Source: Candidatus Omnitrophota bacterium (GTDB taxonomy: Bacteria > Omnitrophota > Omnitrophia > Omnitrophales > JACROU01). Taken from it: a DNA stretch of 64,000 nucleotides. Every line of letters starts with the position of its first letter. The stretch's first letter is position 1. The stretch covers positions 6,958-70,957 of the forward strand of contig JAJDCD010000012.1 in NCBI GenBank assembly GCA_029261035.1, read 5' to 3'. Positions 10,039 through 39,195 of this stretch are shown here, piece by piece. The notes below the pieces were generated by a model, which was given only the letters and a program-made list of their open reading frames with translations, was not told the DNA's origin and ran no database searches. Both the position numbers and the translations under genes were made by a program.

Positions 10039-10671
10039 GTGACAACCATGGATTTACTCTCAATTACGGACTATCCCCAATTTAAAAACAAATTACAAAA
10101 GTCGAATTGCCAAAAATGCACTTTGTCTTCAAAACGAAATCATATTGTGGTCGATAGGGGAAACTTTGATTCAAAGATTCTTTTTATAGGGGAAGCCCCA
10201 GGAGCAAAAGAGGATGATTCTGGTCTTTGTTTTGTCGGAAGAGCTGGGAAGATGTTGGACCTTATGTTTTCTGAAATTAACATTGATACGAATCAAGACA
10301 CTTTAATAGCTAATATTGCTAAATGTCGACCTCCTAAAAATCGTGTTCCTAATAAAATAGAAGCCGCAGCTTGCTTTCCTTTTTTACTTCATCAAATTTT
10401 GTTAGTTAAACCACAGGTCATTATCTTATTAGGAGCATCTGCTTTAAAATATTTAGATAAATCAAAAACATCTTTTGAGATGATTAATGAAGTTGGACGT
10501 TTTTTTAGATTGAAGGAGTTTGACGAAATTGACTTTTTTCCTATCTTTCACCCTGCTTATCTTTTATACAACCCAGGGAAAAAAAATCTATTTAAAGAAC
10601 ACCTACAAATTTTGAATCAATATTTAATTAAACAAAAGATTCATCCAAAAATAAACAAGGTCTCTAAGTGA
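10039..10671 (+). CDS. uracil-DNA glycosylase, family 4
   Basis: Motifs FIGEAPGAKEDDSGLCFVGRAGKMLD and HPAYLL. Cysteines are positioned as in the Fe-S family-4 UDGs. The start could be GTG 10039 or ATG 10048. Confidence 0.8.
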   Translation: MTTMDLLSITDYPQFKNKLQKSNCQKCTLSSKRNHIVVDRGNFDSKILFIGEAPGAKEDDSGLCFVGRAGKMLDLMFSEINIDTNQDTLIANIAKCRPPKNRVPNKIEAAACFPFLLHQILLVKPQVIILLGASALKYLDKSKTSFEMINEVGRFFRLKEFDEIDFFPIFHPAYLLYNPGKKNLFKEHLQILNQYLIKQKIHPKINKVSK

Positions 10672-10958: not shown

Positions 10959-12248
10959 ATGAACACAAAAATAAACCTCAAATATGAGGCTATAAGCATA
11001 GTAAAAACACTCAAAAAGGCTGGTTTTGAGGCTTTTTGGGCTGGAGGAGTGGTGAGAGACCTATTATTAAGAAAAAAGCCTCATGACTACGATATAGCCA
11101 CTTCTGCCCTTCCTAAAGATATTGAGAAGTTATTTAAGAAAGTTGTTCCAGTCGGTAGACAATTTGGCGTTATGATTGTGAATAAGGGAACTTATAATTT
11201 TGAGGTAACAACCTTTAGAGGAGAAGGTGCTTATTTAGATAACAGACACCCCACTAAAATATATTTCACTACGGCTAAAGAGGATTCAAAAAGAAGGGAT
11301 TTTACGATTAATGCCTTATTTTATGATCCTATTGAAAAAAAAGTGATTGATTTCGTTAAAGGGAAGAAAGACTTAGAGAAAAAAATAATTCGAACCGTAG
11401 GGGATCCTAAAGAACGTTTTACTGAAGATCATTTAAGAATCATCCGCGCAGTCCGTTTTGCTGCAAATTTGGGATTTGAAATTCATCCTAAAACTTGGAA
11501 ATTCGTTAAGGAAATGTCTCCTTTAATTAATAAAATGAGTCAAGAACGTATTAGAGATGAACTCATTAAAATGTTTACACGACCTAATCCAGGGGAAGCT
11601 CTTCATTTATTAAACGTCTCGGGATTACTTAAAGAAATTCTTCCAGAGATTGCTTTGATGAAGGGAATTAAAGAATCTAACAAAGATTTGTTGTTTTATA
11701 CTCAGCTCGTTTTAGAGTCTCTAAAGGAACCCAATCTAACAACAGTATTTTCTGCTTTATTTCTAGACTTGGGCAAAGCTTCTGCGAAACAGGTAAAAAA
11801 CATTCCCCATAGCTCTTCTGAATCTAGTGTTAAAATTGGAAATCGTATTTTAAAACGTTTAAAATTTTCAAATAAAACTACGAGCAGAATTATTTCTTGT
11901 ATAAGAAATCAAATCTTATTTGATGAAGTAAGGAGCATGAAAGAATCTCAATTAAAAAAACTAGCGGCTTCTGGTACCTTTGAGGATGCTCTAGAGCTCT
12001 TTCATGCAATCTGTTTGACGGGTAAGGGAGATTTGAGAAATTACCGTTTTATTAAAAATAAAATGAAGACGTTTCAAAAAATTAATATTAAACCAAAAGC
12101 TATTCTTTCCGGCTCGGACTTAATTGAATACGGATTGAAACCCTCAGCAGTTTTTAAGGACCTCTTATCAAGACTATACGATCTGCAATTAGAGGGTAAG
12201 GTTGAAACGAGGTCAGAAGCTTTAAAATGGCTCAAAAAACAACTTTAG
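10959..12248 (+). CDS. cca: CCA-adding enzyme / poly(A) polymerase-family tRNA nucleotidyltransferase
   Basis: Head-domain motifs GGVVRDLLLRKKPHDYDIAT and RRDFTINALFYD. Confidence 0.85.
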   Translation: MNTKINLKYEAISIVKTLKKAGFEAFWAGGVVRDLLLRKKPHDYDIATSALPKDIEKLFKKVVPVGRQFGVMIVNKGTYNFEVTTFRGEGAYLDNRHPTKIYFTTAKEDSKRRDFTINALFYDPIEKKVIDFVKGKKDLEKKIIRTVGDPKERFTEDHLRIIRAVRFAANLGFEIHPKTWKFVKEMSPLINKMSQERIRDELIKMFTRPNPGEALHLLNVSGLLKEILPEIALMKGIKESNKDLLFYTQLVLESLKEPNLTTVFSALFLDLGKASAKQVKNIPHSSSESSVKIGNRILKRLKFSNKTTSRIISCIRNQILFDEVRSMKESQLKKLAASGTFEDALELFHAICLTGKGDLRNYRFIKNKMKTFQKINIKPKAILSGSDLIEYGLKPSAVFKDLLSRLYDLQLEGKVETRSEALKWLKKQL

Positions 12249-16876: not shown

Positions 16877-18535
16877 ATGGGAGCGAGTCCAATCATATCT
16901 AAAATGAGACAATTACTAACTTCAAACGACAAAGATCTAGTTATTTCAACAATAAAAGTTACAAGAGCTCTTAAATTAAAAGATGCTGGAATTATTAAAG
17001 CGCTCAAAAAGCACCTTGAATCAGAAGATCATCAACTGCAATTATTAGCCATAGATTCCATCGGAGATCTCGGAGGTAAAGAAGCGGGGCAACTCCTTTT
17101 TGATATCTTCAAAAAAAAGATTAATCTTCGATTACAAATTGGTAAGTCCTTGTCTCAAATTGGAGATCCAATTATTCCATTATTAAAAAAAGAATACAAA
17201 GAGCATAAAAATGATCGGATGTATAAGAAATCACTTATAAGTATTATTTCAAAAATAAAAACATTTAAATCTATTCAATTCTTACTCAATTGTCTTTATG
17301 AAACAGATTTGGAAATTTTAAAGCATGTTTGTTATGAGATAAGAAACCCATTAAGTGCTATTGATAAAAAAGGAATGCCCGCCTTAGTTAAAGAATTGAA
17401 TGCTCACTTAAAAGAGGCTAAAACTAAAAAACTTTCTAATGCTTTAGTTTCCTTAGTCATTATTATTGGGTATACCAAAGATCCTAAATTCGAAAAACCT
17501 CTTTTGACTTACTTAGACCCTAAGTTTCCCTTTGTTTTAAGAAGAAATACCCTCTTCGCAATAGAAAGACTGGGATTGACAGGGAAGGGGCATGAGACCC
17601 TTGTTAAGGCTTTATTACCCCTGTTAGAAGATCATCATTTTAGTGCAGTTACTCGCTCTATATCAGCTATATTAGAGAAAGTTAGCTTTGGTAAAATCTA
17701 TCAGAAAAAGATGATTAAATTAGTAGAATCCAGAAACTTTGAAGTTAAGAAACTGGCCATGAGTAAGATTGCTCAAATTGAATCTAAAGAAGTTGTAACT
17801 CTGTTATTAAATCATCTCTTTGACAAAAATTACGATATTAGAACAGCTGCTGAAAAGGCCCTCCAAAAAATGCCATCAAGCACAACATATCTATTTCCAT
17901 TACTCATAAAAAAAGACAAACCTGAAGAAATTAACGCCATAGGCAAAATCTTAGCTTACCACAAAGGAAAAGTAACCCCTTTAAGACTTAAAGAAATATT
18001 CAAATTAATGAATAAATCAATGGCCAAATGGGAAGATGAAAAAACTCAGAGTTATTTCAATATATTAAGACAAATTAATCCTGACTTTATCCATTCAACA
18101 TTCATTAAAGAATCCGCCTCATACAGAAAGAAGAAGAAATACAAACAAGCCATTCAGCTTTTAGAACTCTTATCCAAAACCACGGTTTACACAAAAGAAG
18201 TAAAGTGGGAATTAATGCTTAATTATTTACTTAGCTCAGAATTACAACTATCATCCGTTGAACGTAATCGCGATAAAGCACTTTTTATCATCCAAGGATG
18301 CTTAAAATCGGGTGATAAAGACGTGTTAAAAAAGATAAAAAAGGAAAAAGCCTTATCCATGGAACACCTATACTATATAGGATTCCATTTCTCAGAAAAA
18401 TTATTTGAATTGAAGGAATTTGGAGTTAGTCTTTTAAAGAGTATGATTAAAAAATCCCCAAGAAATAAATATTCCATTAATGCAAAAAAACGATTGCAGT
18501 CTGTTGGAGAAGCCTCAAAAATATTGAGTAAATAA
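16877..18535 (+). CDS. HEAT/ARM-like repeat protein
   Basis: 552 aa, all-helical and repetitive (e.g. DHQLQLLAIDSIGDLGGKEA, NYDIRTAAEKALQKM). No enzymatic motif was seen. Confidence 0.45.
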   Translation: MGASPIISKMRQLLTSNDKDLVISTIKVTRALKLKDAGIIKALKKHLESEDHQLQLLAIDSIGDLGGKEAGQLLFDIFKKKINLRLQIGKSLSQIGDPIIPLLKKEYKEHKNDRMYKKSLISIISKIKTFKSIQFLLNCLYETDLEILKHVCYEIRNPLSAIDKKGMPALVKELNAHLKEAKTKKLSNALVSLVIIIGYTKDPKFEKPLLTYLDPKFPFVLRRNTLFAIERLGLTGKGHETLVKALLPLLEDHHFSAVTRSISAILEKVSFGKIYQKKMIKLVESRNFEVKKLAMSKIAQIESKEVVTLLLNHLFDKNYDIRTAAEKALQKMPSSTTYLFPLLIKKDKPEEINAIGKILAYHKGKVTPLRLKEIFKLMNKSMAKWEDEKTQSYFNILRQINPDFIHSTFIKESASYRKKKKYKQAIQLLELLSKTTVYTKEVKWELMLNYLLSSELQLSSVERNRDKALFIIQGCLKSGDKDVLKKIKKEKALSMEHLYYIGFHFSEKLFELKEFGVSLLKSMIKKSPRNKYSINAKKRLQSVGEASKILSK

Positions 18536-25074: not shown

Positions 25075-25959
25075 CTACTGCCTTCTTTTGCGAGCGTCTC
25101 TTTCTTTGAAAAATTTCATCAATGGATCTACATAAGATTCAGTAATATCTATTTCTATCTTATCCAATCCCGTCTTCTTAAATAGCTCGTCTATTTGGTC
25201 TAGATTTGCTTGAGTTTTCATGCAAAATTGTTTTTGAAATTTTTTACTTTGTGTATTTACAATTACCTCATCCCCTGTCTCCAAATCCTCTAATGCGAGA
25301 TAACCTATCTTAGGAATATCTCTTTCTCTTGGATCAAAAAGATGGACCCCAATAATGTCATGCTCTTTCCCTAAAATTTTTAGAGGCTTTTCGTAGTTTG
25401 AGTCTATGAAATCTGAAATTAAAAAGATAACTGCTTTTCGGGTTAGCACCTTATGCATGTATTCCAACACCATAGAAAGATCGGTTTTGTTATACTTAGG
25501 TTCATATGAGAGAATTTCTCGGACTACACGCAAAGCATGTTTTCGACCCTTCTTAATAGGAATGTATTTCTCAACTTGATCTGTAAAAAATATAAGTCCC
25601 ACTTTGTCGTTATTCTTCACAGCTGAAAAAGCGAGAAGCGCTGTGATCTCTGCTGCTATTTCAGATTTAAGCTTTTCACCCGAACCAAAAAAACAAGAGT
25701 ATGAAGCGTCAACAACAAAAAAAACAGTAAGTTCCCGTTCTTCAACAAACTGTTTTATATAAGCAGTTTCACTTCGCGCTGTTACATTCCAATCAATAGA
25801 ACGGATATCATCGCCAGGGACATATTCTCTAACGTCTGAGAATTCAATCCCCTGCCCCTTAAAAACAGACTCATATTCTCCTCCAAACAAATCATTAACT
25901 AAACGATTTGTTTTTATTTCAATGAGTTTTACTTTGCTTAATAGTTCTTTTGGTAACAA
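25075..25959 (-). CDS. DUF58-family protein (MoxR-associated)
   Basis: Motif DDIRSIDWNVTARS and a VWA-like core FFVVDASYS. It lies downstream of the MoxR ATPase, as in Bat operons. Confidence 0.85.
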   Translation of the reverse strand: MLPKELLSKVKLIEIKTNRLVNDLFGGEYESVFKGQGIEFSDVREYVPGDDIRSIDWNVTARSETAYIKQFVEERELTVFFVVDASYSCFFGSGEKLKSEIAAEITALLAFSAVKNNDKVGLIFFTDQVEKYIPIKKGRKHALRVVREILSYEPKYNKTDLSMVLEYMHKVLTRKAVIFLISDFIDSNYEKPLKILGKEHDIIGVHLFDPRERDIPKIGYLALEDLETGDEVIVNTQSKKFQKQFCMKTQANLDQIDELFKKTGLDKIEIDITESYVDPLMKFFKERDARKRRQ

Positions 25960-26074
25960 TTTAAGCTCCTTAAGGGACTGTCACTCATCTCCATTCAAAA
26001 TTTTAGCAATTAAGTTCTTAAAGTAAATTAATTTATATTTTGCATCTTCACTTTTTTGGCCCTGCCCTTTACCT

Positions 26075-26211
26075 AGGGGACACGCACTTTTGCCACAATT
26101 GCTGTCGCAATGGTTACAAAAGTCCATGTCCCCAACTTCGAGCTGTGCTAATTTGGGGACATGGATTTTTGATACTGTTGCTTGCAACTGTGTCAAAAAT
26201 GCGTGTCCCCT
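26075..26211. repeat. 137-nt nested inverted repeat (long imperfect hairpin) in the MoxR-DUF58 gap
   Basis: The outer arms AGGGGACACGCA (26075-26086) and TGCGTGTCCCCT (26200-26211) are perfect. The inner arms TCCATGTCCCCAA (26123-26135) and TTGGGGACATGGA (26153-26165) are perfect. The segments between them are largely complementary. Confidence 0.8.
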
Positions 26212-26231
26212 TCCTCAATATTAACCTTCTA

Positions 26232-27233
26232 CTACGGAACTTCTATTTGGTCGAATATTTTCTTAACAATATCTTCGGAAGTCATGTCTTCAGCTTCCGC
26301 CTCATACGTAATTAGGATACGGTGTCTTAGCACGTCCAATCCAATTTGCTTCACGTCTTCAGGTGTAACATAAGCTCTTCCTTTTAGAAAAGCATGAGCC
26401 TTTGAAGCTTTCGTTAACATAATACTTGCCCGAGGAGACCCTCCAACTGAGATTAAATTCTTTAATTCTTCCAATTTATATAATTCTGGATTACGCGTAG
26501 CAAAAACAATATCCAGAATATAATCTTTTATTTTTTCATCGATATAAATATCATTAACCAAACCTCTTAATCGAAGAATGTCTTTAGGATTAATCACTGC
26601 ATTTACATCAATTTCATCGCTTTTAGTAACTTTTTCAAGAATTAATTTTTCTTCTCTTTTATTGGGATAAGTAACGTTAAGTTTAAGCATAAATCGATCT
26701 ACTTGAGCTTCAGGTAGCGGATAGGTCCCCTCTTGCTCAATTGGATTTTGAGTTGCCAAAACTAAAAAAGGTTCTTCAAGCTTATATGTATTTTCACCAA
26801 TAGTAACTTGTCTTTCTTGCATCGCTTCCAGCAAAGCACTTTGCACTTTTGATGGAGCACGGTTAATTTCGTCAGCCAGAATGATATTGGAAAAAATAGG
26901 TCCCTTTTTAGTCGTAAAATTACCGTCTTTTGGGTTATAGACAAGAGTACCAATTAAATCTGCCGGCAAAAGATCTGGCGTAAACTGAATTCTTTGAAAT
27001 TTAGTGTCGATGGCTTGAGCCAAGGTATGAACAGATTTTGTTTTAGCAAGGCCCGGAAGACCTTCAATCAACACATGACCATTTGCCAAGATGCTGATAA
27101 GAAGTCTTTCTATCAGATACTCCTGCCCCACAATCACTTTATGAATCTCAGTGATGAGAGCTTCCACCAATTTGTGTTCATTTTTTACTTTTTCTGTAAT
27201 TTCTTTTATTACTGCTTCCATGACTACCTCCAT
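26232..27233 (-). CDS. MoxR-family AAA+ ATPase
   Basis: Walker A GLPGLAKT, Walker B and sensor region ILADEINRAPSKVQSALLEAMQERQVT, and ATQNPIEQEGTYPLPEAQVDRF. Confidence 0.92.
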   Translation of the reverse strand: MEVVMEAVIKEITEKVKNEHKLVEALITEIHKVIVGQEYLIERLLISILANGHVLIEGLPGLAKTKSVHTLAQAIDTKFQRIQFTPDLLPADLIGTLVYNPKDGNFTTKKGPIFSNIILADEINRAPSKVQSALLEAMQERQVTIGENTYKLEEPFLVLATQNPIEQEGTYPLPEAQVDRFMLKLNVTYPNKREEKLILEKVTKSDEIDVNAVINPKDILRLRGLVNDIYIDEKIKDYILDIVFATRNPELYKLEELKNLISVGGSPRASIMLTKASKAHAFLKGRAYVTPEDVKQIGLDVLRHRILITYEAEAEDMTSEDIVKKIFDQIEVP

Positions 27234-28482: not shown

Positions 28483-31400
28483 TTAGGCAGCTGCTTGAAT
28501 GGCTTTCCAAGCATTGATGTCAGCAAGTAATGTATCCCAAAGAGCGGCTCCACCTGCTAATTCAATACCGGTATATATCTTGGTATCAAATTGCTTACGA
28601 CTGAAGTCCAGAAGTTTCTTAGCAAGCAAGGTAGCTGTTAAGTTGTGTTGTGTTGTATCGCCAGAAGAGACTTTAGCTAATAACAGTCCTCTTTGAGCCG
28701 TTACATCTCCAACAACCTCTTCAACACCCACAAGACCTGTCGGAACTTTCTGCAATTTAATTGTTTCATTTAGACTACGATCGAGATTCTCTGGAGCAGA
28801 AACAATCACTAAGTTATCTGGATAGAGACCATATTCAGCAATAGCCAGATCTCGAACCTCCGTTTTTAAGGCTGCTATTCGTTCAGCATTACCAGAAAAC
28901 CACAAGGTCAACTTTAATGCTTTATCCATACCTGCAAGCAAGACAAGTTCTTGTAAATCAGTAGCCACTGTCTTGTCTGTCACTTCTCTATGCACAAACA
29001 AGGCTCGTGATGTACTTGTATTTGCATCTGGAAGTACATTAAAGATTCGCCCCAATTCCTGAGTTGCCGTTGGTGTTAAGCGAATAACATCCGCACTCAA
29101 GATCGTATTATCTGCGATTTGAGCCAACTCAGCTGGAAGAGCAATATCGAAAGAAGTTAATACTTGTTCTTGAAGTTCTCTTCCGTACTCTTCTAAGACC
29201 AATGGTAGAGTTAAATCTCTTGGTCCTGTAAAAATTGTTTTAAACTCAGGAGTAACAAAGCTTGCAACCTGAGCTCCTAAACTTTTTGCTGCTGTTTGAG
29301 CTTCAACAATTACTCTTGTTTTATCGAGTACCTTAGAAGCATTCTCGATTATAGCTTCAGTTGCTATTGGTGTAACCACTTCAAGAGGTGAACTATTTTG
29401 TCTTATAGATTCCCCCACAAGAAAACCAACACGTTCACCTATGGATTCAACAATACTTGGCATATCTAATCCAAGTATCGTCGTAAATACACCAGAAACA
29501 CCACCCCCATTAATAACGTAGTCTACAGCCCACAGAATACCTGTGTCGAATAATTGCGCAGATAATTGACGTGCTTTATTAGCAACAAATTGTTCATTTG
29601 CAGCACCTGCAACAATTTTAATTCCAGCTTCACTCAATCTTGCAATAGTATCCTGATCCAAAATATATTTAATTGCTGTTGGACTAAATACAGATGCCGG
29701 AACATCATAAATCTGATCTGATTTTGCAAGCAAAGCAACACTTCCATTCTCAAGACTACCAAAATTAAATGTTGAAACATCTGGAATTGTAGGAACGTTG
29801 GAATAAGTTTCTTTGACAATAGCATGTTGACTATCAAGTTCACTCATAACGACAATAGCTCCCTCTTCTATCAAAGCTTTAACTAAAGGAGTTCCAACAC
29901 CACCCTGTCCGCCTTGAACAGCTATTATTTTACCTTCAAGAGTTACATCTTCACCAAATACTTTTTGAATAGAAGCCTTAATCCCATTAAAAACACCTCT
30001 TGCTGTCCAAGGAGATGCATTATCACCCCCAAGAGCAAGATCTTTGTGCCCTACAACGTGACTTGGGGAAGTTTCCCCTATCGTCAACAATAAGGGTAAT
30101 GGTGTATTCATGTCTTGTCCCACAAATGTCACTGGTATATTCTCTAAAACTCTACCAAGACTGAGATATGCATCTCTTAATTTTCCTCTTTCAACCTGAG
30201 AAAGGTTCTCAATTTTTTTATTTGGATCAAGACCATCTACCTGAATCATTGTCTTTGACCCGCCTAAAGGTAATAAATCGAGACCAATCATGGCATTCTT
30301 ACTTGTCATAGCTCGAGATAAAGTCAAAGCTGAAATCATTTGAGCTTCTCTAGAATCCCATTTTAATCGGCGAACACCTCCAATAGCACCAGACATCAAC
30401 CATTGTTCTGTTCCATATTTCTTATAAGGAAGTAAATGATGTAAACCAATAATAGCTGTATAACCAACACTCTCATTTCTAGCAATAACAAGTCCCACAT
30501 GACCTTCCCAAACATCACTTACATGAGAAGGTAAACTAGAAGGATCTGTTATTCTGGTTACCTTTGTTCCATCATTTAATGTCAGACCTTCTTCAGGAAT
30601 CAAATTCTCAACCCATTGACGTCCTAGTATTTGCATTTCCTTGAATGCTCCATCCCCCAAAGAATTTGCTATAGCAGATTCTAATTTAGATTGTTCATCA
30701 ATAATAAACGAAGGAACATTTTTAAGCTTTCCTAGAAAATCTCTTCTACCAGAAACTTCTTGTTCCCAATAACCAGAATCAACTGTAGTTGTAATGCTTA
30801 AAAGATCTGATGGATCAATATCCACCCCATCAAAATGAACACTCCCCTTTTTAGGGACAAGACCAACAGAAGTTTCAGTATAGTTATCAGCTCCACTAGC
30901 TCTCTCTAACGCCCAAAGAATAACTCGAAAGTTTTCCATAAACCCAGGCCAAATATAACTACCATCTTCGTTTTGTCTAAACCAATTAACATGAAAGAAA
31001 GCTGGAGCTTGCTCTCCAAGAGAACCAATCACTCTTAATTTATTTTCCATATCTGCTGCTTCTGTTTGAGAAAAGAAAGGACGATTTGCAAAAGGATCTC
31101 TTTTCATAACACCTTCTTCTCCAGCTGCTGCTGCTGTACCCATAACACCCATAACAGCACCATCATAGATACCTGATTCTATCGTAGGAAGCTGACGTAC
31201 TAAAAGTTCTCCTTCAGGAATACGACCACCCCAGAAGATTGCGCTAATACGAACACCCTTAGGATCTCTCCAGTGTTCTGACATGATTTCATCTTGAACA
31301 CGTTCTGCAGATGCTGCATAGCGTGCATTTGGATGAGCCCATTCTCTTGGCTCTAGCTTTTTGGACACTTTATTCTTTTGAAGTCGTTCTCCAGAAGACC

Positions 31401-34400
31401 AGTCAGCAATCTTTTCTCCGGTCCAATCTTCCCAACCTTCTAGATCTGGAGTTCCAACTTTAAGGGTTTCAGACCCTTCTATATATGTTTCTTCTCCAAA
31501 TGCCCATGCTTTGTAATGAGCTTTACTTTTAAATCCTGGAGGGAATTTGGTTTTATCTGTCCACCATACTTCATTTGTAATTGTGTTAATTGCAACATTG
31601 GTAAATATTGTCCCCGTGTTTGGACCAATGGCTACCATTGCTTTTGGTGTTTGCTCCGCATTCGTACCTTTTGCAACACCAAAATAACCATTCTCAGCAT
31701 TGGTTGCATAAAGCCCTTCACCTTCACGAGCACGTGCGAAAATAATGTCATCACTGACAACACGAACTTCGTACTTACCTTTAAGAGCATCTGGAACTTC
31801 GATCATAGCAAAATTCGTTTTCCCAGAAGCACTTGGCGCTGCATATGCTACATAATCAAGTTTTCCTGTTTCAAGATTCTTGATTTCAACCACAGCCATA
31901 TGCTCTGCTAACCAACCTTCTTTAATTGCACTCCAAGTTGCATAACGAAGTGCATGAAACTTTTTGTTTAATAGAGCATTCCCACCATAATTAGAGCCGT
32001 AAGACATAATCAACATTTCATCAGGAAAAATACCGTAATTCCTTAAATCGACACCATCTTCAGCTTCTTCAATAAACTCTTTTCTAGCATCGCCTTCAAG
32101 ACCCAACTCATTCGCTTCTTGTGTTGCTTTCTCATTCGCTTCTGCAATAAGAGAGTATATTTTATCTATATCACCAGGTTCATGAACACCACGAACAAAT
32201 TTTTCTTCATCACCTAGTTCTGCCAGAGCTACATTACCTACCTTAGCAAGTCTGAACATATTTAAAGCCACATATCGACTTGATGTTACCTGAACACCCA
32301 CCTGAGAAAGGTCAGAGCCAGCAGTTCCCATTAGATATGGAAGAACATACATTGTTTTGCCAGCCATAGAACCTTTTAACAGACCTTCCATAACTTCTTT
32401 CTTTTCTGCTGTTGGACTCCAGTTGTTATAGTGCCCTGCATCCTCTGGGTTTTCTGTTGCGACAAACGTCTTTTTAACAGAACGCGCCGTATCTTTTTTA
32501 TGAGAACGTGTGTAATAGTTACCATCTGCGAGTTTTGTTAATTCTCCTGCGGCAACAGCTTGCTCAAGTAAAGCAGCGTCATCTGATTCGTCTACAATCT
32601 GAATATCCGCAGCCCCTGTAAACTCAACCATTTCACGAATCCAGCTTTGCAACGCAACATTAGATAAAGTTGAAATCTTATCTTCAATTGCTGCACCTAA
32701 ACTAGAAGCTTCTGTTGTTGTTTGAGTCCAATCGTATACGCTCAAAGGAAAAGTATCATAAACAAAGTCATGAGCCTCCAAAGCTTTCTGAGCTAAAGTC
32801 AATCGACTTATATTTTGAATTGTTGCTTTTTCTGATACTTTCGCTTTGGCATTACTAAGTTTTTTAGTAACATTTTCACGAGAATCAAAAATTGCATCCA
32901 ACAAAGCATCTCTCTCAGAAGCATTCGATTCAATTACAGCTAGCAGCACACGCGAACCATAAGTAATCCATTCATCGTGAGTCAATTTTCTTTTTAATAT
33001 TTCCATAATGACAGGAGATTTGCTTTTATCAAAAGCCCCACCTGGATTATCATTAAAGTATTCAGTTACCGTCAAATCTCTTTCTTGTAACATTTCAAGA
33101 ATAAGTTCTTTAGTAACTTTTTCGCCATTTTTAACTTCTCTACCATCATGAAGAATTTGTCCACCTTCATCCAACTCGATACCATGAATTTCTAACAACT
33201 TAACCCAATGCCAGAAAATTTCATAAGTAGCAAAGTCGTTCATTAAACGTTTACCTGTAAATACGTGTTTACCCGCATCATTGGTAAGACGTTCTTTTTC
33301 CGTTTTATAATCATCAACAGCGGCTGCATTATTTCCATTCAACTGTTGGAACCCATACTCTGAAGCCATAAAAATTGCATAACGAATTCCATCTAGTGTT
33401 ACTTTACCAGTTGGAGTTGTGAATATTTTCGCATAAGCTTCTTCAGAGAATAACTCATCTAAATCTTTTTGAGTAACGATATAAGGAGTAATTCCTCCTG
33501 CATCAGAAACAAGTCCTAAGTTAATGAATTTTTGTCTTTCTTCTACAGATAAACCATCTACTAAAGCTTGCAAGTCTTCTCTAGTTGCTTGTAACGGTTT
33601 AGCGCCTGCCTCTACATATTTCGTGGATACAGTAGCAACCCAACTTTGACGATAGGCATCAAACTCAACTCCATCTATAACAAGAAGACCTGTTAATCGT
33701 TCACGGAGTTTATCTAAAAACATTGCTTGAACAGCACCGTCATTAGTAGCTTTCTTAGCCGCAGCAATCTCTTCCGTGTCTGTTGCTTTAATTGGAGTTT
33801 CCATTACAGCAGACATTCCACCGATCGGCATACCATTCTCCAGAGCACCCGTTTCACGATTTCCTGTTACTAGTACTGTAATTAAAGCATTCCTACGCGT
33901 GTATTCCGTCATAGAGGCTTCTGTCATACCAACGCTATTAGGATCAGGAAATACTTTTGAAGGGTCATCTTTAACCATCTCAAAACGCCCATTAATATAA
34001 TCCCAACGACCTACATTAGGTCCAATTAAGTTTTCTCTTAAAATCCAAAGAATTACTTCTTGCTGAGCAGCATAAGTCCCTCTTTCATTCAACATTTCTA
34101 TTTTTATAGAACCCCTTTCAAGACCTAGAGTTTCTTCAAATCGCTTAAGAATCTTAGAAATAATCAAAGCTTCTTCAGGAGATTCAATTTTAGGGACATA
34201 AAAGTAAACATTACTCTCATTTTCTTTTTGAGCATCATAGTTATTCAATAAATGGATTGTAAATGCTGCAATCGTCGCAGGAATATTTCTACCATCTAAA
34301 GTAATTTGTCTGTTTTTTAGATGAAGCCCAGGAACACGATGAAAAATGGTTGGCCATTGATCACGATCCACTTTGATACTATATTCTTTAGGTTCACCTT

Positions 34401-37400
34401 CTTTATTTTTCTTTGTAGGATGTTTGAACGCACGTCCTATCCAGGTACCCGATATCACTTCCTTAATATAAGTCCATGCTTGATAGAGTTTTTGTTGATA
34501 GTCATTACCCGCGTCCTCCCAGTCAAACATCCAAGACACAGCGCCTTTTAACCCTGCGTTAATAGCTCCCATCAACATACCCATATCATCGGCTGGCCCC
34601 GTTCCTTGCAGACCGGCTTTTAGAACTTCTGCTGGGACTGGCACTGTTGAGTTCATAACCCAACGATACTGAGAGTCTTTATTTATTAAACCTTCACGAA
34701 TTTGTTCAACCGTTAAAGTGTTTCCATCCGCGTCGGTCAATTCTTTTGAAGGGTCCGCAAAACCATAACCTTCACCCGAATCTCGTCGAGCTTTTCTAGC
34801 GTGTAGTTGCTTTCCAATTTCTAAACCAAATTCACGCGTCAACGATTCAATCGTTCCTTCTACATTTACCGTTCTGCCATTTACTTCTTTATCACCGAAA
34901 AGACCTGAAAAATCTTCAGCCAAATCTTCGCGAACTACAAGCCCTTCTGTTGTGGTATTTACATCAACATCAGATTTAGCAGAAAGATTAAATTGATTAG
35001 ATGTATCAACATCATTACCTTTTTCTCTTGAAGAGGCTGTTCCATTTGCTATTCTGTTAATAGATGCTAATTGAGCACCTCTCACTTCAGCACCTGCAGA
35101 ATTTTGATGTCTATTGGTGAAAGGAGATCCTATTTTCTGACCCACCTGCTGAACCATAGACACAAATGCATAAGCACCCACTTTAACTAATTCTCTCATT
35201 ACTCGATAAACGTTTAAATGAGCAACATGATCTTGAAAAATGGTTACGAATTGGAATGCAAAACCTTGCTTACCCATATCCGTACTAAAAGTTCTTAAAG
35301 CATCAACCATCGCCTGAACATCTTCAGGGTTGTCACCCCATGTATCCGGTTGACCCCAATCAAAATCTTTTGATTGCATTGCTTTTTTAATATTAGCTCT
35401 TTGCTCTAAGCTCAAAGCAGCATGCCAGTTATCAGGGTTATTCCAGTTAAAAGATGGAGATAAATTCACTGCCTTAAGTGGTTTAAAACCTAACTCTGGA
35501 TCATTGTCTACAATATCAGCAAACGCTTTTGCATTTTTTAAATCGGGTTCTTTTTGTTCCATCCACAAAATATCTGCTGCACGAGCTGCCATTCTCAAAC
35601 GGATCCCTGCATTTGTAACACCCAACGAGTTATCAATTTGAAAAAAACCTTCACTTGTTTGAGCTAACGTGTGATCCCAATAAATTTCAATATTAAAACT
35701 ATTTATTGCTAACTCTCTTAAATCCTGAAAATCCAAAGTAATCTCTAAAGGATTAGTAGCTTCGTTCCATGCCTCGACTTCACCGCTACGGCCAGCTTCC
35801 ACCAAAGCTCTTTCAACAGCTTGAGGATAAGTCATAACATCTGCTTCTTGAGCCCAAACATTAGTCAACCTAGAAGATGCCGCAACCTCCTCTTCCCAGC
35901 CGGAGACTTCCGCATCTAAGACTTCTTGAATTGTCCACTCTTTACCAGAAGCATCAACAACAACGTTATTTAAACGCACTCTAAAGTTCGGATCTTCTAG
36001 CTCAATAGCAAGTCTATTCGACCAAAGTTCATCCACATAAACAGGGTTTCCACCATACTTTGGAGTCAAACTTTCATTATGCTCTAAAAGCCTCTCTTTT
36101 TCTTCTCCTCTAATATTCCAAACCTCTCTAATAGAAGCCGCAATTTTGGGAAAATTAGCTTCGATTTCCGAAAGCCTAACTTCAGGGTCAACACCTCTGT
36201 TATATTCTTTTTTATGAGATAAACGAATCACATCTTTTAAAGAAGGTATTCCTTCAACTGTAGCACCTTTAATAAAGTAATGATCTTCAGCTGAATTATC
36301 ATCTTCAAGTAACTTTGCTCCTTCAGCATCACTGCGTGCAATAATTACCAAAGTTGAGCTTCGACGAATGGCTTCATAACGAATATCCCATAGACGCTTC
36401 ATAAACTCACCTAAAGAAGTCAACACTTTACCAGCCATATGACCACATTTTTTTTGTCCATGTGCTTGGTCTTCAATATGAATCGATGCTGATTTTGCAG
36501 CAATAAACAAAGAAGCTAATTGAGTCGGAGATTTATGAGCAGTATCTCCATCAGCGTAAATAGGAATTAATGCATTTAATAAAACATCATTCAAATTTTC
36601 AAGAACTCCAGCCACTGCTTTCTCTCTATTTGCCTTTAAGTTGTCACTAGAAAAGCCTACATAATTTTCTCGATTACTAATTAATTCAGAAATAAAGCCA
36701 TCCCCTAATTCTGTAGCAAAGTTTTCAAAATCTTCTCTAACTTCTATTGTAAATATATACTGTCTTGCTCTAACAGAATCGACAAACGAGCGAATCAATG
36801 CTGGCTTCATTTGCTCTAAAGATGCTTTGTTAGGAGCCCTTCTTAATATTTGGAATAAATTGGGAAAGAACTTTTTAGTTAGATCTCTAGACAAAGTTCT
36901 GAATTGATATTGTAAGTTTTTGTCCAAGTTAACTAAACCCGTGTAAATTTCTTTAACTTCATTTGGAACACTATCCAATTGGTACTGAGCTAAATCTGGC
37001 TCCCCCATATGATGCGATGTTTGCCAACCACTTAAATACAAAGCTTCTGCCCCTGCCTCAACAGCTGCTTTAGCTGTTACAGAATCCATCACACCACCGG
37101 TCGCTGCAAAAGTACCTTGCTCCGCATGCTTCATAACAAGATAATACAAAGAATCTGCTAATGCATTAGCTGTTTCTGGCACATCTAAAACGCTCCCTGC
37201 CAATCTGTGAAACTCTTCAGCAGTCCATTTCTTATCCTCTCTCATAAATTTAGCAATTCGACTAAATCGATCTTGAGCTAAGAATTTTTTAAAATGTGCT
37301 ACTGTGGGTTCAATTCTTTTAGCCTCTGGCAAAGCACCCAAACTATTGGCAGATACATTAACCACTTCATTAAAAACTGGAAATTCCGCCAACAGATCCT

Positions 37401-39195
37401 GCCCCTCAACAGAAAGTTGAATTCCAACTCTGTTATTCCAGGAAGAAAATTGTTTTCCCCAAGGACTTTCGTTAAGCGTAGTCTGAAGCCCTAAAATATC
37501 CCCAGCTTCTATAACTCCGCTACCAACCAAAGCTCTTCTAGCAGAAATGATGAATTCAGGAGCAACACCACCAAAGTAATCAACACCTAAAGCAACCAAT
37601 GCTTCTACAGAAGTTCCTCCAAAGAAAGGTGTTTCAATTGTTGAGTCCTTTAAACCATGGCTACTTGTCTTAAGGAATGAATGAACGTAAGTTTCTTGCC
37701 CTTCAACAGAATCAATTTGAGGAGCAATTAAAGAATAGTTCGATTTGTCTTCATAATAATTCTTAAAAGATTCAGAGTGAAACCCCCCTGTAATAATGGC
37801 TACATTCTTAGCTCTTCTAGATTCAATTAAAGAAGTAGCTTTATCAAACATACCTGAATCACGCTGAATAGCACCTTCGTAAAATTGCACCGATTTCCCG
37901 AATAGAGCTTTCACTTCTTCTAAATTCTCAATTTGTGTTTTCTTGACACGAGACAATGTATTGATTTCATGAATAATTCGACTAGGGTCTAAAGTGTTTC
38001 CTTTAGACTTCAATGCCTTATAGTCTTTTGGTGTTAACTGTAGCTCAAATAACCGGCTCAATAGTTCAAAGTTTAAAATCAGTTCCAACACCCTCTTCTG
38101 TTCTTTAGACTCTGTTAATTTATCTAAGATCTGAGCATTTAACTTCTCAGATTCATTAAACAACCTATCTCCAACCAACTCATTTTTCAAAAGAAAGTTT
38201 CCAACAAAAAATGAAACATTAGGATATACATCAAAATTAAAATTTGCTGGCAATTTCCTAACCACAGATTCCATCAACAGCGCAAGAGCACCCTCAGCAT
38301 CAGAATCAACAGAGTTAAAAAATGCTTTCAACTGTTTGTGCTCTTTAGCAGAAACAGTTTTGCGTGCAAGTTTTAAAAAAGCATTTTTTTCTTTGTGAAA
38401 CTGTTCTAAATTAAATTGATCTTGAAACTTTTGGAGTTTAAAAACTCTAAAAAGCATTGGCCAATCCAATTGCTGACCCGGTTGATCAAAATCAATATTT
38501 AAGATTTGATTCGCTTGTTTTTTTAAATTTTCTAATCTCTGAATAAATGTGATTTTCTTCTGGTCAAAGTCTTTTTTGTTTTTTAAACTAAGTCGAATAT
38601 CTGCATTCAACAAAGAAGACTTGAGGCCTTCTACCTTAGCTTTTATATTGGATAAAAACAAACTCGTCTTCTCTCTTTGAGATAATACAGCTACAAAGTC
38701 TTTTGAGTTACTCATATAAGATGCTTCATCTTCTATACCATAAGCTTTAACTTTAGGATTATTCATTAAGAATAATTCTGCTCCCTTAAGATAAGCTTTG
38801 CGAGTTAAATCATCTGCAATTTGTGCGTTGATTTTTTTATCACGAACAAACTGAAGCAGTTCAGGTTCTAACTCCGAAACGGAGCCTTCTAAAAGAAGTA
38901 AGTCTATTTTTTTGTTTTGATTTAAATAATTAAGAATGGATTCTATATTTTTTTGGGCTTGATAATTACCATGAGCTGTTTGAATATGAAATACATTTGT
39001 TTCATGTATTTTGGGTGTTTGATGCTGAATAACACCAAGCTCACGAGGTAATGTAAAATTTGAATTGTTAAGTGATACGGATGAAACTGTATTTAATTGC
39101 GTTAAACCTTGCGAATATCCAGTCCCTGAGAAAATAAAAGTTAATGCAACGAACAAGTTTATTGCCTTTAATCTAGCGAAGTAATTAAGAAACAT
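28483..39195 (-). CDS. giant multi-enzyme fusion protein: leader + TraB/GumN-like domain + isocitrate lyase + malate synthase + GTP-PEP carboxykinase + ELFV-type dehydrogenase + unknown C-terminal domain
   Basis: Uninterrupted 3,570-codon ORF in an AT-rich genome. AAGGAG lies 9 nt upstream of the ATG (39193-39195). Hallmark motifs of four enzyme families occur in series (see the domain entries). Confidence 0.9.
   Translation of the reverse strand: [3570 protein letters not shown]
28486..29274 (-). other. domain (aa ~3308-3570): C-terminal region of unknown function
   Basis: About 260 aa of non-low-complexity sequence after the dehydrogenase module. I recognised no motif. Confidence 0.5.
29311..30618 (-). 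other. domain (aa ~2860-3295): Glu/Leu/Phe/Val-dehydrogenase-like NAD(P) oxidoreductase
   Basis: [21 protein letters not shown] (Lys2981), [16 protein letters not shown], Rossmann motif [12 protein letters not shown] (aa 3090-3101), VAGAANEQ and [10 protein letters not shown]. The classical ELFV signature is only partly matched. Confidence 0.7.
30691..32667 (-). other. domain (aa ~2177-2835): GTP-dependent phosphoenolpyruvate carboxykinase
   Basis: [47 protein letters not shown], P-loop APSASGKTN (Lys2459), [20 protein letters not shown], and [25 protein letters not shown] (aa 2734-2758). Confidence 0.9.
32971..34878 (-). other. domain (aa ~1440-2075): malate synthase (A-type-like)
   Basis: FDWEDAG (aa 1557-1563), [32 protein letters not shown] (aa 1725-1733), and [13 protein letters not shown], where Asp1987 sits at the position of the catalytic base. 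Confidence 0.85.
35011..37278 (-). other. domain (aa ~640-1395): isocitrate lyase, long form with insertions
   Basis: YLSGWQ (aa 720-725), IYADGDTAH, the ICL signature KKCGHMAGK (aa 915-923, nt 36427-36453), [38 protein letters not shown] and [10 protein letters not shown] (aa 1362-1371). Confidence 0.9.
37711..39018 (-). other. domain (aa ~60-495): TraB/GumN/ChaN (Tiki-superfamily)-like, tentative
   Basis: [37 protein letters not shown] (TAH aa 73-75, Glu103) resembles the GTxH...E motif of this superfamily. [33 protein letters not shown]...YSLIAP (GGFH aa 470-473) resembles its C-terminal R-[ND]-x2-[MW]...VGxxH motif. This rests on pattern recall only. Confidence 0.35.

Follow-up and report, generated by a model that had tools for sequence, protein, structure and literature searches.

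The 137-nt imperfect palindrome in the spacer between moxR and the DUF58 gene of this Candidatus Omnitrophota contig is probably (at roughly 70%) an inverted doublet of a small dispersed repeat of REP/REPIN-like or MITE-like character, inserted 20 nt 3′ of the moxR stop codon. Its hairpin unit belongs to a repeat family that is shared with a related genome, in which the copies occupy non-orthologous sites, and the palindrome is non-coding at the moxR-DUF58 locus. The best reading of the family as a whole is that it is lineage-restricted and constitutes a new family of the known REP-like kind.

The stretch of DNA analysed (64,000 nt, hereafter the window) is assigned to Candidatus Omnitrophota by its MoxR homologues. 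On its − strand lies a Bat-type operon with genes for BatD-like, MoxR and DUF58 proteins, an unnamed gene, BatA/VWA, a VWA-TPR gene and a metallophosphoesterase. The moxR-DUF58 gap, at 272 nt, is the only gap in this operon that exceeds 60 nt, and the DUF58 gene, which begins 115 nt past the palindrome, has a ribosome-binding site (AAGGAG) of its own. The features of the gap and its borders are as follows.

26232–27233, − strand: moxR (AAA_3 ATPase), the upstream gene, whose stop codon lies 20 nt before the palindrome.
26075–26211, no strand assigned: the imperfect palindrome in its full length of 137 nt, which comprises two inverted hairpin units and a linker.
26155–26210, + strand: unit 2 (56 nt), “forward” on the + strand and antisense to the operon, with left arm GGGGACATGGATTTTTGATACTGTTGC, loop TT and right arm GCAACTGTGTCAAAAATGCGTGTCCCC.
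26134–26154, no strand assigned: the 21-nt linker, AACTTCGAGCTGTGCTAATTT, the apical part of the long hairpin.
26076–26133, − strand: unit 1 (58 nt), “forward” on the − strand, in operon sense, the more diverged copy.
25075–25959, − strand: the DUF58 gene, downstream, with a TTG start and AAGGAG 7 nt ahead of it.

An earlier note on this DNA had described perfect outer arms (AGGGGACACGCA at 26075–26086 and TGCGTGTCCCCT at 26200–26211) and perfect inner arms (TCCATGTCCCCAA at 26123–26135 and TTGGGGACATGGA at 26153–26165); its coordinates and sequence strings for the arms and the gap all match the sequence. A repeat search of the window extends the outer arms to 28 nt with 89% complementarity and the inner arms to 32 nt with 81%. 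The remark that the gap is more GC-rich than other spacers also holds, as GC peaks at 0.46 over the palindrome against ~0.30–0.38 in the flanks. Folding in both orientations, which the same note had recommended, gives a single long hairpin on either strand (about −81 to −83 kcal/mol; z = −10.4 and −11.1), and none of the 200 shuffles was as stable. The long hairpin is favored over two local hairpins (−80.8 vs. −61.9 kcal/mol). The palindrome belongs to no known RNA family: Rfam yielded no match at the gathering threshold in the window, and below it only generic long-hairpin types, such as miRNA precursors and HBV epsilon, appeared.

The arms had been read as a nested palindrome. They are real, and they are better described as two inverted copies of one asymmetric unit of 56–58 nt, an imperfect hairpin composed of two unlike 27-nt arms and a loop of 2–6 nt. 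Because this unit is asymmetric and the two units are inverted, the outer arms resemble each other, as do the inner arms, and the palindrome looks nested. A repeat search of the palindrome found the 27-nt arm four times, in alternating orientation, and this arm motif has four matches in the window, where none is expected. The heptamer GGGGACA had been noted four times in the palindrome and had not been seen elsewhere in the window: its four copies in the palindrome were confirmed, whereas its absence from the rest of the window was not, since a fifth match lies at 31609–31615 (− strand) and five matches do not exceed chance. All five units now known, including those described below, start with GGGGA(C/A)A. 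The two orientations of the unit are clearly distinct under a covariance model (81–86 bits forward vs. 49–60 bits reverse across units): unit 2 scores 83.7 bits on the + strand and 60.2 bits on the − strand, and unit 1 scores 81.0 bits on the − strand and 52 bits on the + strand. The two window units differ from each other at 8 of 54 stem positions.

Apart from the two units in the window, three single units are located on a related contig, Ga0315338_1000003 (2.17 Mb), which also bears the MoxR that is 88% identical to that of the window. This contig was the only one hit by an exact-pattern scan of 241 million JGI metagenome records, in which it matched twice; the third copy, which is more diverged and lies 4.4 kb from one of the pattern-matched copies, was detected on the same contig by nhmmer and the covariance model. 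The three copies are located as follows.

L024:6364–6421: 22 nt 3′ of a glycoside hydrolase family 1 (GH1) gene, before a HemL-like aminotransferase gene.
L024:10821–10878: across the stop codon of the guanylate kinase gene (gmk), upstream of rpoZ.
L023:2516–2573: in frame within a stop-free ORF of at least 1157 aa, encoding GKWIFDTVSEATVSKMRVP.

At gmk, the last three codons and the TAG stop (…LGK, stop) come from the left arm of the hairpin (L024:10821–10830), and thus the C-terminus of the protein has been remodelled by the insertion. The L023 ORF was aligned with its paralogues (in L019 the gene of 1379 aa, and in the window and L020 the N-terminal parts of the giant genes), which show a gap of 12–20 residues at the position of the unit in alignments of only 26–29% identity; this is suggestive of an in-frame insertion of the unit. 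A search for orthologues of the L023 ORF gave no match. The reading frame used in L023 is open in both orientations of L024a and L023, the units with a 6-nt apical spacer.

The covariance model detected no further unit in the other 63.9 kb of the window or in ~130 kb of the 10 relatives' loci that had been obtained by means other than a match to the unit (L019–L022 and L025–L029). A looser pattern run against 185,579 species-representative genomes returned no true copy; the 18 loci that it matched, almost all in Mucilaginibacter, represent one orthologous intergenic sequence in which a single arm matches by chance and the hairpin partner is missing. This 27-nt intergenic sequence, GGGGACA(A/G)GTAATTTTGTTACTTTTGC, is kept at one orthologous locus in ~16 Mucilaginibacter/Sphingobacteriaceae genomes and in two other Bacteroidota MAGs (L001–L018). 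Viral contigs and plasmid and phage collections contained no copy of the unit, and a composite peptide query made of its open translations had no protein match at E ≤ 10. The family is narrow in its range, and either its copy number is low, to judge from these searches, or its copies diverge quickly. The check for further copies that had been proposed in the earlier note was therefore positive, as a related genome carries the unit at three unrelated loci, and the copy number found is low.

No consistent direct duplication of a target site flanks any of the five units, and a weak similarity to YAGTTMA is seen 2–8 nt 3′ of three of them. No transposase was found among the 32 ORFs of the window and 10 ORFs of the other loci that were scanned against Pfam. 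Integron attC sites were considered and rejected: by eye, the hairpin ends have no R″/R′ core (GTTRRRY), and the genes on either side have housekeeping functions and do not form cassettes. CRISPR repeats were ruled out because the orientation of the units alternates.

Comparison with the same gap in related Bat operons, likewise proposed earlier, also points to an insertion. The relatives are listed below by locus.

L019 (closest relative): MoxR identity 88%; an extra gene of 1379 aa lies between moxR and DUF58.
L020–L022: MoxR identity 84%; moxR-DUF58 gap of 85 nt.
L025 and L026: MoxR identity 81%; gap of 5 nt.
L027: MoxR identity 80%; gap of 105 nt.
L028 and L029: MoxR identity 79%; gap of 46 nt.

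The covariance model found no hairpin unit in the moxR-DUF58 gap (5–105 nt) of five other relatives. Thus, the palindrome was inserted in this lineage specifically and does not belong to the conserved make-up of Bat operons, and the suggestion in the earlier note of a miniature inserted palindromic element is supported both by this absence and by the three unrelated loci. No pair of filled and empty sites is alignable at the nucleotide level, and L023 and L024 show no synteny with the window. The idea that the window gap is a remnant of the 1379-aa gene was discarded: the sole tblastn match in the window lies away from the gap, at the N-terminus of the giant gene.

A second, unrelated palindromic repeat, GTCA-TCCCGG-N5-8-CCGGGA-TCCAG(G), occupies intergenic gaps of the Bat operons in relatives and is absent from the window; copies lie at L019:10032–10050, 11071–11089 and 17356–17374, at L024:45–64 and 111–130, and at L027:5035–5125. 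It also occurs in many contigs of the viral collection that differ in GC content (16 IMG/VR loci, L030–L045). One L019 copy lies immediately 3′ of the moxR stop codon, and the L027 copy belongs to a nested palindrome between moxR and DUF58; since this repeat is found there in relatives, hairpin repeats seem to have landed repeatedly in the spacer 3′ of moxR. The MoxR of the sister contig (P0002, 353 aa) has probably been called ~24 codons too early (L019:10001–10072): its similarity to the window MoxR starts at 10073, and a copy of the second palindromic repeat lies within the extra N-terminal stretch.

Giant genes are typical of Omnitrophota, and one of them lies directly upstream of the Bat operon in the window (28483–39195, − strand). 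It encodes a fusion protein of 3570 aa, in which an N-terminal domain of ~500 aa with no assigned function is followed by isocitrate lyase, malate synthase, PEP carboxykinase and Glu/Leu/Phe/Val dehydrogenase; giants of 5725 aa (L019) and >3060 aa (L020) occupy the same position in relatives. The N-terminal domain, which carries the motif IH[IL]QDAHAN, defines a paralogous family (L019:11132–15271; L023:2–3472, − strand; window 37650–39195, − strand). The stand-alone member of 1379 aa is the one situated between moxR and DUF58 in L019, and the member of at least 1157 aa in L023 is the one that carries the hairpin unit in frame.

Structure statistics were taken across the five units and their 27 pairs. 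Seventeen of these pairs never vary, and four are changed on both sides, a number that was equalled in none of 500 shuffles and in no slid control. The compensatory changes in unit 1 fall at pairs 12/47, 18/41 and 23/36, and the compensated positions (12, 18 and 23) coincide exactly with mismatches of the long hairpin. It is thus the local single-unit hairpin, rather than the long 137-nt hairpin, that has been preserved by evolution. Two mismatches, G·G at 10/49 and the pyrimidine-pyrimidine mismatch (U·U) at 22/37, are invariant, as is a U·G wobble at 8/51 in the five units. The wobble cells on the forward strand comprise 12 G·U and no A·C, and this strand is 9–16 kcal/mol more stable than its complement. 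Such a pattern is consistent with selection on a folded single strand, whether this is RNA or single-stranded DNA that a strand-specific enzyme recognises.

Conservation of the unit extends to its sequence. Unit 2 of the window is identical to the copies of the sister genome at 50–53 of 54 stem positions (93–98%), with 53 of 54 shared with the copy at L024:6364–6421; stem identity of unit 1 to the other units is 78–85%. When the window is compared with the sister contig, moxR and the DUF58 gene are 75% and 74% identical in nucleotide sequence, respectively, and identity at third codon positions of identical residues is 0.49 for moxR and 0.45 for DUF58, which means that synonymous sites are saturated (~47% identity). 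Relative to the surrounding genes, four of the five units (the three single copies and unit 1 of the window) are in sense orientation. This bias and the asymmetry in G·U are equally consistent with an RNA function under selection and with transposition as single-stranded DNA.

The signatures just described form the case for reading the unit as a host-selected cis-acting RNA module, that is, a protein-binding, processing or stability hairpin present twice in the window, and not as selfish DNA. The 93–98% conservation of sequence, beyond pairing, in the face of saturated synonymous sites, the invariant mismatches, the restriction of G·U wobbles to the forward strand and the fact that the three single copies and one window unit lie in sense orientation all agree with it, and small hairpins (z ~ −2) are also found 3′ of moxR in L019 and L020. 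However, a REP-type element would show the same signatures, one copy is located within a large ORF and another across a stop codon, the genes flanking the copies are functionally unrelated, one window unit is antisense, no Rfam family was matched and the moxR-DUF58 gap of relatives lacks the unit. A module of this kind is therefore an unlikely explanation, though one that retains some weight. The structured mRNA element suggested in the earlier note is compatible with the data as a consequence of the insertion, given the stable hairpin, the G·U bias and the sense orientation of four of five units; its conservation in Bat operons is not borne out. That the palindrome serves as an intrinsic terminator or attenuator between moxR and the Bat genes that follow is very unlikely. 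Such a role would suit a highly stable hairpin 20 nt 3′ of the moxR stop codon, with a promoter-like site downstream (26027–26000, − strand). Yet no U-tract follows the hairpin on either strand (3′ flanks CUAGGUAAAGG on the − strand and UUCCUCAAU on the + strand), a scan of 26075–26211 reported no terminator-like site on either strand, the stems of 27 to at least 60 bp are far longer than those of intrinsic terminators, and the unit also occurs between gmk and rpoZ and inside an ORF. The promoter-like site itself, an extended −10 (TTTACT-16 nt-TG-TAAAAT) situated between the palindrome and DUF58, is at chance level (1 found vs. 1.2 expected).

Two further readings deny that the palindrome is an element at all. 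The earlier note had allowed for a genuine small Cys-rich protein gene with incidental palindromy, and both of the ORFs that it named are present with their Cys-rich strings:

25981–26196, − strand: an ORF of 71 aa with a TTG start, a by-product of the palindrome and not a gene.
26040–26315, + strand: an ORF of 91 aa with a TTG start, antisense to moxR and overlapping its 3′ end, likewise a by-product of the palindrome and not a gene.

Open frames on both strands and a CxxC-like spacing speak for such a gene. Neither ORF has a Pfam match, and the 71-aa ORF has no true homologue among 1.84 billion representative proteins, its sole match there (P0121, 13 stretches, E = 1e-23) being a junk tandem-repeat translation that is unrelated to the 1379-aa gene of similar length. 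Moreover, neither ORF was called as a gene in the source record, in which the flanking MoxR and DUF58 genes were called; the TTG start of the ORF falls inside the stem; the 91-aa ORF runs antisense to moxR and overlaps it; and the Cys-rich frame is interrupted by stop codons in the other four units. A protein gene is thus highly improbable, and this part of the earlier note has to be given up. Finally, a chimeric palindrome created during assembly or amplification would come to mind for any palindromic feature on a metagenome-assembled contig. The imperfection of the arms (81–89%), the differences between the units at 8 of 54 stem positions, with those in unit 1 compensated, and the occurrence of the hairpin unit in an independent assembly reduce the likelihood of such an artefact to almost nothing.

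A dispersed repeat present here as an inverted doublet remains the preferred reading, and it can be compared with known systems. A REPIN is defined as an inverted pair of REPs separated by a spacer (PMC3337134, PMC3116915), and the two window units (26076–26133 on the − strand and 26155–26210 on the + strand) show this very arrangement, with a 21-nt spacer and a long hairpin. Like the REP/BIME/REPIN elements that are associated with RAYT in Enterobacteria and Pseudomonas (PMC3116915, PMC3337134), the Omnitrophota units are short, imperfectly palindromic and dispersed among small gaps that follow genes, they occur as singlets too, their conservation is well above that of neutral sites and their structure is strand-specific. 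By contrast, they are longer (27-nt arms vs. roughly 10–15), they lack the 5′ GTAG, which is absent from the flanks in either orientation as well, and only five are known here, compared with tens to hundreds per genome; in addition, one copy is intragenic, no RAYT is found among the ORFs scanned here and the phylum is Omnitrophota. Because the 5′ GTAG is absent and the scanned ORFs include no RAYT, membership of the RAYT-associated REPs is not claimed.

Palindromic elements can be inserted in frame in genes (PMC10969869), and the L023 copy, in which an in-frame palindrome would add the short peptide GKWIFDTVSEATVSKMRVP, is reminiscent of the Rickettsia palindromic elements (RPEs) in this respect. 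The RPEs are ~100–150 bp long and Rickettsia-specific, and the host phylum here is Omnitrophota; the in-frame case described here is a single copy that rests on paralogue alignments at 26–29% identity. The Correia elements (CREE/NEMIS) of Neisseria (PMC2649163) and ERIC are also similar in that they measure ~100–155 bp and are co-transcribed as long hairpins, which are cleavable by RNase III, as in the case of Correia hairpins (PMC2649163), or alter mRNA stability; a like effect of the window copy would be expected by analogy only. The Correia elements differ in that their core is bounded by 26-bp terminal inverted repeats and that they have an IHF site and a TA target duplication. The window element, made up of two complete hairpin units, shows none of these features. 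PATEs and MITEs derived from IS200/IS605 are similar in carrying imperfect hairpins near their ends, in subterminal position, whose recognition is confined to one strand of the DNA, and they need no signature of terminal repeats plus duplication. On the other hand, their left-end and right-end hairpins are unlike each other and in the same orientation, and neither TnpA/TnpB nor a parent insertion sequence was found in the scanned ORFs or in the plasmid, phage and viral collections. In the narrower sense of a MITE, with terminal inverted repeats and a target-site duplication, the element does not qualify, as the whole unit is an inverted repeat and no consistent duplication is present.

The mechanism that these features suggest is one in which the unit is copied by a strand-specific machinery recognising the folded single strand, and an HUH/Y1 enzyme (RAYT or IS200/IS605-type) acting on single-stranded DNA would be the obvious candidate for it. 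Once transcribed in the Bat mRNA, the doublet must fold into a very stable duplex, which, by analogy with REP, ERIC and Correia elements, is probably a barrier to 3′–5′ exonucleases and/or a site for RNase III. Such a duplex would uncouple the level of moxR mRNA from that of the downstream DUF58-batA-batB, and the palindrome may in this way act as a stable mRNA hairpin that affects the Bat operon.

To our knowledge, small palindromic repeats have hardly been described in Omnitrophota. A bolder proposal, which is on balance doubtful, is that the 57-nt hairpin represents a long-lived, sequence-specific replicator or structured-RNA system of an Omnitrophota clade, conserved at 93–98%, whose folded strand would be recognised through the fixed G·G, U·U and G·U by a putative RAYT-like HUH enzyme or an RNA-binding protein, and which may be able to reside in frame in giant genes. 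If true, it would give an ultra-small, host-dependent candidate phylum its first described system of REPIN-like or RPE-like type. In more immediate terms, two spurious small Cys-rich “genes” are kept out of annotation, and the only large spacer of the Bat operon is to be seen as a late insertion and not as a conserved regulatory site. If whole genomes were examined, the family would offer a compact test case that combines conservation far above neutral, strand-specific constraint and an in-frame copy in a large gene, from which one might learn how elements of the REP type are maintained in streamlined genomes and what effect they have on operon expression and on the evolution of giant genes.
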